This document shows, piece by piece, positions 20,815-25,643 of a stretch of 64,000 bases of DNA. The notes below the pieces were generated by a model. That model searched no databases and had not been told where the DNA came from. It saw only the letters and a list, made by a program, of their open reading frames with translations. Made by a program: the position numbers and the translations under genes. Position 1 is the first letter of the stretch; the number at the start of each line of letters is the position of its first letter. Origin of the DNA: Candidatus Aminicenantes bacterium (lineage in GTDB: Bacteria; Acidobacteriota; Aminicenantia; Aminicenantales; Aminicenantaceae); contig JAFGMO010000082.1 in assembly GCA_016927475.1 (NCBI GenBank), forward strand, positions 13,564 through 77,563. The letters are read 5' to 3'.

Positions 20815-20883
20815 TAACCTGTATTATTCAAGAGCCAAGCTTACCGTAGATGTAAGGTGCAGCCTGTGAAGTTGTACAGGTTA
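20815..20883 (+). mobile_element. Miniature inverted-repeat element, copy A
   Basis: TAACCTGTATTATTCA...TACAGGTTA; 49 of 61 aligned columns identical to the reverse complement of 23399-23459 (hand alignment). Confidence 0.7.
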
Positions 20884-20897
20884 GACGATTTAACCGG

Positions 20898-23339: not shown

Positions 23340-23461
23340 TAGCCTGGTTATTTCCAGTCAGCCAAAAATATATTGTTTCGGTCTGTTCACGGTGCCGAGC
23401 ACAGCTTCACGGGCTAACACCTCATATCTGTGGTAACCTTGACTCGTGAATAATACAGGCT
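23340..23461 (-). mobile_element. Miniature inverted-repeat element, copy B
   Basis: Right end GTGAATAATACAGGCT, degenerate left end TAGCCTGGTTATTTCC; internal homology to copy A. Confidence 0.65.
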
Positions 23462-23465
23462 GGCA

Positions 23466-23494
23466 TTGACGAAATATCCGGCCGGTTTTATAAT
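23466..23494 (+). promoter_or_regulatory. Sigma70-type promoter
   Basis: TTGACG-N17-TATAAT, 33 nt before the ATG at 23528. Confidence 0.75.
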
Positions 23495-23527: not shown

Positions 23528-23839
23528 ATGAATTGGGGCTTATATGGATTTCTTTTTGTTTTTGCGATGTTTATCTTGCTCATGCTCATTAATCCCAATC
23601 TCTCATGTTTTGGGAAGAGAATAAAATCTCCGTTATATCCTCTCTTTCGTAAGAAAAAAAAGCATCGGAAGACAGAAGATTACGGATTCAAACTGGTGGA
23701 AGGGAGTCCGAAGAAACAGGTAGCGGTGAGAAAACCTTCGACCGAGCAAGAAAGCAGAAAGGTTGAAGACTACGGATTCAAGCTGTTCGATGAAGAGGAA
23801 GGCCGGCATGAAAAAAAGGGGAAAAAGGGGGAGAATTAA
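23528..23839 (+). CDS. Hypothetical membrane-anchored protein with duplicated RKxEDYGFKL motif
   Basis: GAGG RBS, N-terminal TM helix, internal repeat. Confidence 0.7.
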   Translation: MNWGLYGFLFVFAMFILLMLINPNLSCFGKRIKSPLYPLFRKKKKHRKTEDYGFKLVEGSPKKQVAVRKPSTEQESRKVEDYGFKLFDEEEGRHEKKGKKGEN

Positions 23840-24524
23840 TACCCTTCGGCCGGGAAGCCTCGTCGTTTTGATTGCTTCCTGGCTGTTGATACAAACCGCC
23901 TGTGTTCCTTCCCGGATTCTTTTATCTCCTTTACCACAGAGTATTGAAAGCCTGGAAGGTTATGCCTCGATCAGGATATCCGGTAACGGCGTAAAGAACA
24001 GGGCCAAGTTTTCATTTGTTTTCAGGTTTCCCCGGGAAGGAAAGATTCAGGTAAAAAACGTTATCGGGAAAACGCTTTTTCAAATCCTTATTAAGAACCA
24101 GGGATCCTATTTTATTCTTCCCTCCAAAAGAGTTTATTGGCAGGGGGACCAGGAGGACCTCATTGAGAAATTTCTGGGCTTCAGTCTGAGCATGGCAGAG
24201 ATGGCAGGATTGATGACGGGAAATTCTTCTGTCTGGCAGAGAGGTGGAATTTCCGCAGGGTGGGAGATCGAAAAAGATGCCTCAGGAAAAATACTTTCAG
24301 GGGAAAGGAAAAATTTCCGTTTTCAGGTCAAAGAATATATAAACGGGACTTCAGCAGTGAAAGAGCTGGAATTCGAACATGACCGGGGCGAAGGATGTTT
24401 GAAAATTCTCCAGATTCGTTTCAACGGAACGGTGCGTAATGAGATTTTTTCGGAAAAGTTTTTGGTATCTTTTAACAGAAAAACATGGCCTGAGATTGAG
24501 CGTTTGTTGAACAATGAAAAGTAA
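23808..24524 (+). CDS. Lipoprotein, LolB/DUF4292-like
   Basis: Lipobox IQTAC; occupies the lolB position immediately upstream of ispE; start uncertain. Confidence 0.55.
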   Translation: MKKRGKRGRINTLRPGSLVVLIASWLLIQTACVPSRILLSPLPQSIESLEGYASIRISGNGVKNRAKFSFVFRFPREGKIQVKNVIGKTLFQILIKNQGSYFILPSKRVYWQGDQEDLIEKFLGFSLSMAEMAGLMTGNSSVWQRGGISAGWEIEKDASGKILSGERKNFRFQVKEYINGTSAVKELEFEHDRGEGCLKILQIRFNGTVRNEIFSEKFLVSFNRKTWPEIERLLNNEK

Positions 24525-24674
24525 CCTGCATTATTCGTAAATTTGGCCGACATTTTCTTGACAACGGTCATAGAAAATGTTTCATTATCAGTATTGCCAT
24601 AGAATACGTTTAAACGACACATACTATTGAAATTATCTATTGGTGTCGGCCAAATTTACGAATAATGCAGGTTA
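24522..24674. mobile_element. Miniature inverted-repeat element, copy C (perfect 31-bp inverted termini)
   Basis: TAACCTGCATTATTCGTAAATTTGGCCGACA (24522-24552) is the exact reverse complement of 24644-24674; TA at both outer ends; no ORF inside. Confidence 0.88.
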
Positions 24675-25531
24675 AATCTTTTGCTAAAGTCAATCTGGGT
24701 TTAGAGATCCTTGGAAAAAGGCCTGACGGCTATCATGATATTCGGACATTGTTCCAAACCGTAAACCTGTACGATATCCTTGAATTTGAAATTTTACCTG
24801 AAGACAAAATTCTTCTACACGGAAACGATAGATCCATCTCTTGGGGAGAGGACAATCTTATGTTCAAAGCATCATCTTTGCTTAAAAAGGAGACAGGTGT
24901 TTTAAAAGGAGTAAGAATTCGGGTTGAAAAAAACATTCCCGCCGGCATGGGACTCGGGGGGGGGAGCAGCAATGCAGCCGTTTCTCTTTTGAGTTTGAAT
25001 ACGTTATGGAATCTCGGTCTGAACAGGAATGATCTTTTGAAATGGGCAAAAAAATTAGGCGCTGATGTCCCCTTTTTTCTCTATGGAGGATTCTGCCTCG
25101 GCCTGGAAAGGGGAGACCGAATCCTAGAGAAAGAGGATCTCGATGACGTCTTTTTTTTGTTGGCCCTTCCGGATTTTTCGGTCAGTACAGCTCATGTTTA
25201 CAGAAGCCTCCCCATGTCCTTGACTTCAGGAGATAAAGGCAGTAAAATTAACGAGTTTTTAACGAATTTTGACTTTGGATTACTGGAAAATAGACTAGAA
25301 AAAACCGTTTTCCGACTATATCCTCAACTCAAAGCTATTAAACGCTTGATTCAGGTTCAGGAACCGGAGCTTTTACTCGTTACGGGCACGGGTTCCGCTA
25401 TAGTTGGTCTTTTCCGGAAAAAGGATGAGGCGGAAAATGCGGGAAAAGCGATAGAGAAAAAATTTCCATATCGAGTTGTTAAGTCGATTTCCCGGAGCGA
25501 GTACTGGAAAGGAGTTACTATTGGGGTGTAG
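24665..25531 (+). CDS. ispE: 4-diphosphocytidyl-2-C-methyl-D-erythritol kinase
   Basis: AKVNLGL.I.GKRPDGYH, KNIPAGMGLGGGSSNAA, LGADVPFF. Confidence 0.96.
   Translation: MQVKSFAKVNLGLEILGKRPDGYHDIRTLFQTVNLYDILEFEILPEDKILLHGNDRSISWGEDNLMFKASSLLKKETGVLKGVRIRVEKNIPAGMGLGGGSSNAAVSLLSLNTLWNLGLNRNDLLKWAKKLGADVPFFLYGGFCLGLERGDRILEKEDLDDVFFLLALPDFSVSTAHVYRSLPMSLTSGDKGSKINEFLTNFDFGLLENRLEKTVFRLYPQLKAIKRLIQVQEPELLLVTGTGSAIVGLFRKKDEAENAGKAIEKKFPYRVVKSISRSEYWKGVTIGV
25220..25248 (+). promoter_or_regulatory. Internal sigma70 promoter within ispE, likely driving tRNA-Gln/prs
   Basis: TTGACT-N17-TAAAAT. Confidence 0.55.
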
Positions 25532-25593
25532 CCAAGCGGTAAGGCAGCGGACTTTGGATCCGCCATTCGGAGGTTCGAATCCTCCCACCCCAG
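25522..25593 (+). tRNA. tRNA-Gln(UUG), CCA not encoded
   Basis: Acceptor stem TGGGGTG/CACCCCA, anticodon arm GCGGA-CTTTGGA-TCCGC, T-arm GGAGG-TTCGAAT-CCTCC. Confidence 0.97.
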
Positions 25594-25643
25594 TTTAAGG
25601 ATAAAATCCTTTTTATCATAGAGTGCCGAGGAGAAGCGAAGGT

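Follow-up and report, generated by a model that had tools for sequence, protein, structure and literature searches.

The lolB-like/ispE junction

A MITE (miniature inverted-repeat transposable element) lies between the gene for a LolB-like lipoprotein and ispE, the gene for 4-diphosphocytidyl-2-C-methyl-D-erythritol kinase, in an uncultured sediment bacterium, Candidatus Aminicenantes bacterium (assembly GCA_016927475.1, contig JAFGMO010000082.1, positions 13,564 to 77,563 of the forward strand). This whole stretch of 64,000 nucleotides (nt) is referred to as the window, and coordinates are window positions, position 1 being its first letter, unless they are prefixed by another locus. The features that make up the junction are the following.

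23808-24524, plus strand: LolB-like lipoprotein gene; database call of 238 amino acids (aa), open reading frame (ORF) open from 23763, stop codon TAA at 24522-24524
24522-24674: hairpin element including both TA dinucleotides, 153 nt, a perfect inverted repeat
24524-24672, plus strand: MITE proper, a 149-nt short form without the ~105-nt structured module of the common ~260-nt form
24522-24523, no strand: left TA of the putatively duplicated target
24673-24674, no strand: right TA of the putatively duplicated target; its T closes ispE codon 3 and its A opens codon 4
24522-24552, plus strand: left 31-nt arm including TA; contains the LolB-like stop codon and, at 24537, a G that is a compensating change
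24644-24674, plus strand: right 31-nt arm including TA; contains the current ispE ATG (24665-24667) and a C at 24659
24550-24580, plus strand: nested inner hairpin with 9-nt arms (24550-24558 and 24572-24580); includes TTGACA at 24558-24563
24665-25531, plus strand: ispE, 288 aa, its first 8 nt from the element

The arms are 31 nt each, 100% complementary and separated by 91 nt, so that the non-coding element of about 150 bp with perfect 31-bp inverted ends, which had been described in an earlier sequence-only reading of this DNA, is indeed present. The 28-nt core of the arm matches the window twice, both matches being the element arms themselves, against an expectation of zero (100 shuffles). 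The sole ORF across the element is an antisense frame situated mostly within the LolB-like gene, and there is no transposase gene inside.

A start codon supplied by the repeat

The ATG of the right arm is the only in-frame ATG, GTG or TTG between the upstream stop and codon 28, and codon 28, the next possible start, lies well beyond the conserved K-S-F-A-K motif. The product carries Pfam GHMP_kinases_N (1.4e-19) and GHMP_kinases_C domains and retains the conserved N-terminal K-S-F-A-K-[IV]-N-L-G; source records name its homologues 4-diphosphocytidyl-2-C-methyl-D-erythritol kinase, with relatives in Candidatus Aminicenantes/Acidobacteriota. The organism's own genome (4.99 Mb, 94.8% complete) contains a single ispE copy and encodes IspH, and HMG-CoA reductase was not found in it, from which ispE is very probably indispensable here. 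As read from the sequence, the right arm supplies the sole canonical in-frame start of this single-copy gene. The earlier proposal that a normally essential gene uses a repeat-encoded start, giving the N-terminus MQVKSFAKV, is thereby borne out.

The arrangement is readily explained by an insertion into overlapping genes. Before it, the LolB-like gene and ispE would have overlapped by 11 nt, placing the LolB-like stop inside the first four ispE codons. The MITE would have entered at the TA of that stop, hence within those four codons, with duplication of the TA. The present LolB-like stop consists of the left TA and the first base of the element, an A, which together would have rebuilt it; the left end thus keeps the upstream TAA, as the sequence-only reading had it. 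At the other end, the last 8 nt of the element (ATG and five further bases) and the right TA set the start at its original distance and encode M-Q-V-K-S-F. They would have restored both the start and the reading frame, so that the length of IspE was kept while M-Q-V-K replaced M-K-S-K. Sequence and comparison bear out these steps, and we regard insertion with donation of the start codon as very likely.

Each end of the ispE copy carries an outward-reading ATG 8 nt from its tip, so that insertion at a TA in the right phase would rebuild a start. In the genome the ATG is retained by 229 family termini, of which 19 open an ORF that is 100 aa or longer. At two further loci (G000:C65 near 30102 and G000:C80 near 37623, both on the minus strand), ORFs of 385 and 198 aa have the terminus ATG as their first canonical in-frame start; both begin M-Q-D-K-K, and the starts that follow in frame come at codons 26 and 36. 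The genome may thus contain repeated cases of start donation.

A probable ancestral gene overlap

The state of the junction before insertion was approached through 29 relatives with a lolB-like/ispE junction. The LolB-like gene stands directly 5' of ispE in 29/29. In 23 of the 29 its stop begins 1 nt ahead of the Lys/Arg codon that is conserved in the ispE K-S-F-A-K motif, and in 20 the ispE ATG lies 9 nt before that codon, which amounts to an 11-nt gene overlap; three further relatives have a 14-nt overlap. None of the 29 has a spacer like the element at this junction, whereas a spacer shared with relatives would have spoken against an insertion.

When 24524-24672 and one TA are excised in silico, the following feature comes into play.

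24514-24516, plus strand: relic start codon (ATG) of ispE from before the insertion, today no more than a piece of the final LolB-like codons

After excision this ATG is in frame and 9 nt before the Lys codon, and the LolB-like stop begins 1 nt before it. The excised junction has the modal architecture of the relatives and an N-terminus M-K-S-K-S-F; the in-frame MKSKSFAKV overlapping the upstream stop, predicted earlier, thus has the architecture found in 20/29 relatives.

The comparison with orthologous junctions, which had been suggested as a check, succeeded in part: the overlap architecture is shared, but neither this species nor its genus yielded an empty-site allele. Among 40 relatives, none of the same genus, the nearest IspE is 54-56% identical, so the empty-site test is an architectural one. 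Searches for an empty-site allele in metagenome contigs returned 4 loci (the best 60% over a partial match), those in a collection with one genome per species returned 8 loci (the best 57%), and a search for paralogous empty sites in the organism's own genome returned the self-hit only.

A dispersed repeat family

The element is far from unique. A blastn search of the 153-nt element against the organism's own genome found 149 places, 107 of them with alignments of at least 115 nt, contrary to the possibility, raised with the original reading, that no other genomic copies exist. The majority of copies align only from element position 16 on: in the common form, of ~260 nt, a GC-rich module of ~105 nt interrupts the left arm after its first 15-16 nt. 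Both ends were found for 71 copies. Ten of these, the one at ispE among them, are short forms of ~150 nt that lack the module, and 38 fall in the 255-264 nt bins; others carry extra inserts.

The termini are more numerous still. The 14-nt terminus (≤2 mismatches) occurs 490 times in the genome, with TA directly outside in 256 cases, and TA stands at both sides of 40 of the 71 two-ended copies. These flanks and the junction architecture fit a TA duplication, the empty site being seen only as orthologous architecture. Beyond this genome, the 16-nt terminus (≤1 mismatch) was found in 75 of 81 genomes of the same taxonomic family and in 35 of the 39 genera they represent, with a reversed control giving ~0. 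Near-full-length copies with 70-72% identity occur in other genera, and weaker copies in 7 of the 40 relatives searched. By its sequence, then, the element is a member of a large dispersed MITE family, spread throughout one family-level clade of Candidatus Aminicenantes.

The nearest sister of the ispE copy is a long form (G000:C70:166521-166656), which is 92% identical over the core (~8% of positions differ) and shares 10 of the 16 departures of the ispE copy from the consensus. In none of the 10 short forms is the nearest neighbour another short form; it is always either a long form or a copy in which the left end was not located. The module was therefore probably lost rather than absent originally. 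At the locus of the sister copy (L002 1361-1380), the right terminus of another family member lies ~3 nt from the sister's left terminus.

The consensus structure of the module itself is rod-like and comprises 34 pairs; changes on both sides are seen at 11 of them, and one 8-bp helix is fully covarying. In the module alignment 95.9% of cells are paired, compared with 28-37% after sliding of the partners. G-U pairs that are conserved fall on the strand that reads from the left end of the element to the right end. Long-form loci in the organism's own genome include L008:1621-1760(-) and L014:1620-1759(-). Five copies (L012, L013, L018, L020 and L030) carry a 16-nt G-rich insert, at three different module positions, which resembles a nested mini-insertion or a helix extension. 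Rfam gave no match for the module, and at four loci with long and short copies it gave two tRNAs and nothing else. We found no paper on repeats of Aminicenantes, and the portion of PMC4381525 available to us is silent on such repeats.

No transposase that would mobilise the family was found in the organism's own genome or at the loci examined in relatives. In the organism's own genome, PF13358 (DDE_3) has no matches, neither the 2 Y1_Tnp genes nor the 4 DDE_Tnp_1 matches have convincing family termini within 2.5 kb, and terminus pairs 0.7-5 kb apart enclose ordinary genes. Assignment to the REPIN-RAYT system is not supported, neither Y1_Tnp gene being convincingly flanked by repeats within 2.5 kb. 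Of the 81 genomes from the taxonomic family, 12 carry DDE_3 genes; a family terminus bounds none of the 12 DDE_3 loci examined in relatives. With respect to IS630/Tc1-mariner elements, the TA duplication is seen but a DDE_3 transposase with matching inverted repeats is not. One relative (G078) has an IS630-type element of ~1.1 kb (L089, G078:C160, ~1340-2440) with a helix-turn-helix (HTH) and DDE_3 in two frames. Its inverted ends contain the 8-mer of the MITE tip, away from their own tip, and ~2 such matches are expected by chance in the DNA scanned (an estimate); the element is a weak lead to the mobilising transposase.

Could the hairpin instead be a native regulatory structure of this junction that never moved, or an assembly chimera? 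That no transposase and no same-genus empty site were found is what either idea would have in its favour. Against them stand more than 100 dispersed copies with the same ends, the 29/29 relatives lacking such a junction spacer, and flanks that are syntenic in all relatives and equal in depth. The assembly was examined with contigs from 4 runs of 2 studies. Contigs of run X1 tile the locus as 23900-24551, 24522-24645 and 24645-25300, with depths of 11.2, 7.9 and 10.2 and with 0, 1 and 0 other letters, respectively. They break only at the 31-nt arms, which we attribute to arms as long as the assembler's word. A 151-nt contig of the second study (X2; 24404-24554) joins the LolB-like gene to the left arm, so that contigs of two studies support the left junction. 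No single listed contig spans the element; the orientation of the inner 91 nt is thus not fixed by contigs, which leaves the reading unaffected. The join is accordingly no assembly artefact, which was the other doubt attached to the original reading. Being contradicted by the family copies, the junctions of relatives and the contigs, the native-hairpin and chimera explanations were rejected as extremely unlikely.

Age of the insertion and perfection of the arms

The closest IspE in the protein collection (86% identity, 240/278) has the same first 14 residues, MQVKSFAKVNLGLE, beginning MQVKSF, whereas the next-closest (68%) begins MKIKSY. This pattern suggests, at the level of protein sequence, that the insertion arose between the 86% and 68% splits and is fixed. 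The LolB-like partner of the 86% relative was sought in the protein collection, which contains no close relative of the LolB-like protein (best non-self match 46%). Over the 138-nt core, the identity of the ispE copy to the consensus is 88.4%, near the family median of 87.0%, and the copy is thus of ordinary age for the family; its inner 91 nt have 15 differences, the median being 12. An old and fixed insertion is the probable reading.

All 31 arm pairs are intact in the ispE copy alone among the 71; the runner-up has 29, and 13-28 of the 31 are present in the 19 copies whose inner parts have diverged to a similar degree. The single departure of the right arm from the consensus, the C at 24659, is paired by the G at 24537 in the left arm. 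This C abolishes an out-of-frame ATG 7 nt before the ispE start, an ATG that is kept in 92 of 107 copies. Perfect arms could reflect selection for pairing or a single hairpin-templated repair event, and both fit. The latter is suggested by the nearest relative being a long form that shares 10 of the 16 departures: one such event could have deleted the module, perfected the arms and copied the arm change across.

Perfect arms might also be a sign of youth. The insertion would then be recent or polymorphic, and the 86% relative would owe its matching N-terminus either to native sequence or to an independent insertion. The range of 13-29 pairs in other copies makes this conceivable, and the relative is known from its peptide. 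However, the consensus identity close to the median and the ~8% core difference from the sister are not those of a young copy, no element-skipping joint is present among the contigs listed for the 4 runs, and the first 14 residues are identical in the relative. A recent insertion is very unlikely on this evidence.

Expression of ispE

The region folds at a predicted -67.7 kcal/mol (z = -10), and none of 200 shuffles folds as well. In the predicted free RNA, the ispE ATG has a probability of being unpaired of ~0.00. It pairs with bases 8-10 of the left arm, while the LolB-like stop occupies left-arm bases 1-3, so stop and start are 5 base pairs apart in the helix. No GGAG, GAGG or AGGA occurs in the 20 nt before the ispE ATG; the genes beside other family copies have plain Shine-Dalgarno sites. 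That the ATG is buried in the stem with no obvious Shine-Dalgarno sequence, as the sequence-only reading had stated, agrees with both results.

A tentative route to ispE expression, and one that we hold to be possible rather than probable, is translational coupling. In this model ispE would be transcribed together with the LolB-like gene, with its start codon locked in the 31-bp stem. A ribosome terminating at the stop at the foot of the stem would free the ATG, so that coupling by RNA unfolding would replace the lost overlap. In a model that places a ribosome at the stop and keeps the mRNA single-stranded up to +12, the probability of being unpaired is 0.95 for the A of the ATG, 0.96 for the U and 0.06 for the G.

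It is doubtful, but conceivable, that selection has kept the stem perfect because the operon has recruited the transposon to couple its genes. Under co-option, the terminating ribosome would melt exactly the pairs that hide the ATG and could hand over to ispE, and the compensated arm change (for which a G-U intermediate is possible) and the loss of the out-of-frame ATG would be adaptive tuning of a domesticated MITE.

Two other routes to ispE expression start from the same insertion. RNase III could cut the 31-bp duplex and separate the cistrons, leaving an ispE mRNA with a very short unstructured leader. The stem is a perfect duplex of 31 bp, and the Correia elements of Neisseria bind RNase III and are cleaved or protected, according to the text available of PMC2649163. 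A cut creates no Shine-Dalgarno sequence, however, and would bring the ATG to the 5' end only by luck, and the position of the stop codon exactly at the foot of the stem is left unexplained. Processing by RNase III is therefore fairly unlikely as the explanation.

Alternatively, the ispE transcript could start inside the element, at TTGACA or elsewhere, and would then lack the left arm and present a single-stranded ATG. The perfect -35-like hexamer at 24558-24563 speaks for this, as does the ability of Correia elements to create promoters (PMC2649163, in the part available). The nested hairpin and the TTGACA on which the earlier reading had drawn are both present, but a promoter role is not supported: a scan of the plus strand found no promoter-like hexamer pair inside the element, and the C that creates TTGACA is common to the nearest sister and one other copy elsewhere in the genome. 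Further, the 69 copies placed relative to gene starts (by a crude ORF-based gene call) show no orientation bias, with 32 presenting the left flank and 35 the right, and a Shine-Dalgarno sequence would still be absent. An internal promoter is quite unlikely.

Taken together, an old and fixed MITE insertion that donated the start of ispE, with coupling to the upstream gene, is likely to be the best overall explanation. Several points weigh against it. No true empty-site allele of the species or genus was found, the nearest genomes having an IspE 54-56% identical, and no transposase with family ends was found in the organism's own genome or at the loci examined in relatives. The insertion apparently shared with the 86% relative is read from a peptide, and one relative (L045) has Q-V at positions 2-3 with no MITE there. 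Selection is not required to account for the perfect arms, as one repair event could explain them. With regard to coupling, the prediction keeps the G of the ATG paired even when the ribosome sits at the stop, and this G may re-pair locally, and the distance from stop to start is 140 nt along the RNA, when coupling usually declines with distance (PMC12548453, as far as its available text goes). Finally, no RNA was found over the locus; two metatranscriptome runs of the same study gave 0 and 1 unrelated contig, which is uninformative on expression.

Neighbouring features

The upstream protein is weakly LolB-like (Pfam LolB 21.8 bits, under the cut-off of 23.7), and a LolA gene lies just before its gene on the opposite strand. 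Two further features border the pair.

23466-23494, plus strand: the region's best promoter-like site, lying upstream of the LolB-like gene; 11/12 matches, a consensus match only
25521-25594, plus strand: tRNA-Gln (anticodon TTG), whose gene shares 11 nt with the end of the ispE ORF

The former is a candidate start of the lolB-like/ispE transcript. Two degenerate long-form fragments, each comprising a terminus and part of the module, lie at 20815-20885 (plus strand) and 23375-23462 (minus strand), the second ending just 5' of the promoter-like site. The ispE stop codon falls inside the 5' end of the tRNA-Gln gene, and the 86%-identical IspE relative has a different, shorter C-terminus.

Relation to known systems and significance

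Correia elements (CREE/NEMIS) duplicate a TA. The element described here resembles them in being small (~100-155 bp), gene-less and bounded by long terminal inverted repeats, with many dispersed copies, long and short size classes, a long co-transcribed RNA hairpin, effects on neighbouring genes and no known transposase of its own (PMC2649163 and PMC3184786, in the portions available). It differs in its host, which belongs to an unrelated phylum. The likeness drawn here is one of design. Further, the common form here has a ~105-nt module with covarying helices, and an element end supplies the start codon of an essential gene.

Donation of an initiation codon or of the 5' end of an ORF by a dispersed repeat is known from REP2 of Neisseria, an inverted repeat of Borrelia and pneumococcal repeats (available text of PMC3184786). 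However, REP2 carries promoter, ribosome-binding site and ATG as a package, according to the same source, whereas the element at ispE contributes only an ATG, without a ribosome-binding site and buried in a stem. Another difference from repeats of the REP2 type is the target, here a gene overlap in which both gene ends were rebuilt. A 2024 review of MITEs (PMC10969869) contains no occurrence of 'start codon'.

Coupling of the unfolding type is described for f1 VII-IX, MS2 coat-lysis and Escherichia coli rpmI-rplT (+52 nt) in the part available of PMC12548453. In those systems, as is predicted for ispE, a secondary structure conceals the downstream start, and the ribosome on the upstream ORF meets the other strand of that structure on its way. 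In contrast to those systems, the structure here is delivered by a transposon and replaces an 11-nt overlap, with 140 nt from stop to start.

Both the element type and repeat-supplied starts are thus already known, and the case is a clean example rather than a new principle. What sets it apart is an insertion into a gene overlap that rebuilt the ends of both genes, together with a hairpin that may have been reused for coupling. The present analysis adds to the sequence-only reading that the element is a module-less derivative of a structured family of ~260 nt and that the insertion looks old rather than polymorphic.

The locus illustrates the way in which an essential gene can survive a transposon hit in its first codons, and the correct annotation of the ispE N-terminus depends on recognising the repeat. 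The replacement of an 11-nt overlap by a 140-nt hairpin, with stop and start at its foot, makes the junction a natural test case for coupling by RNA unfolding.

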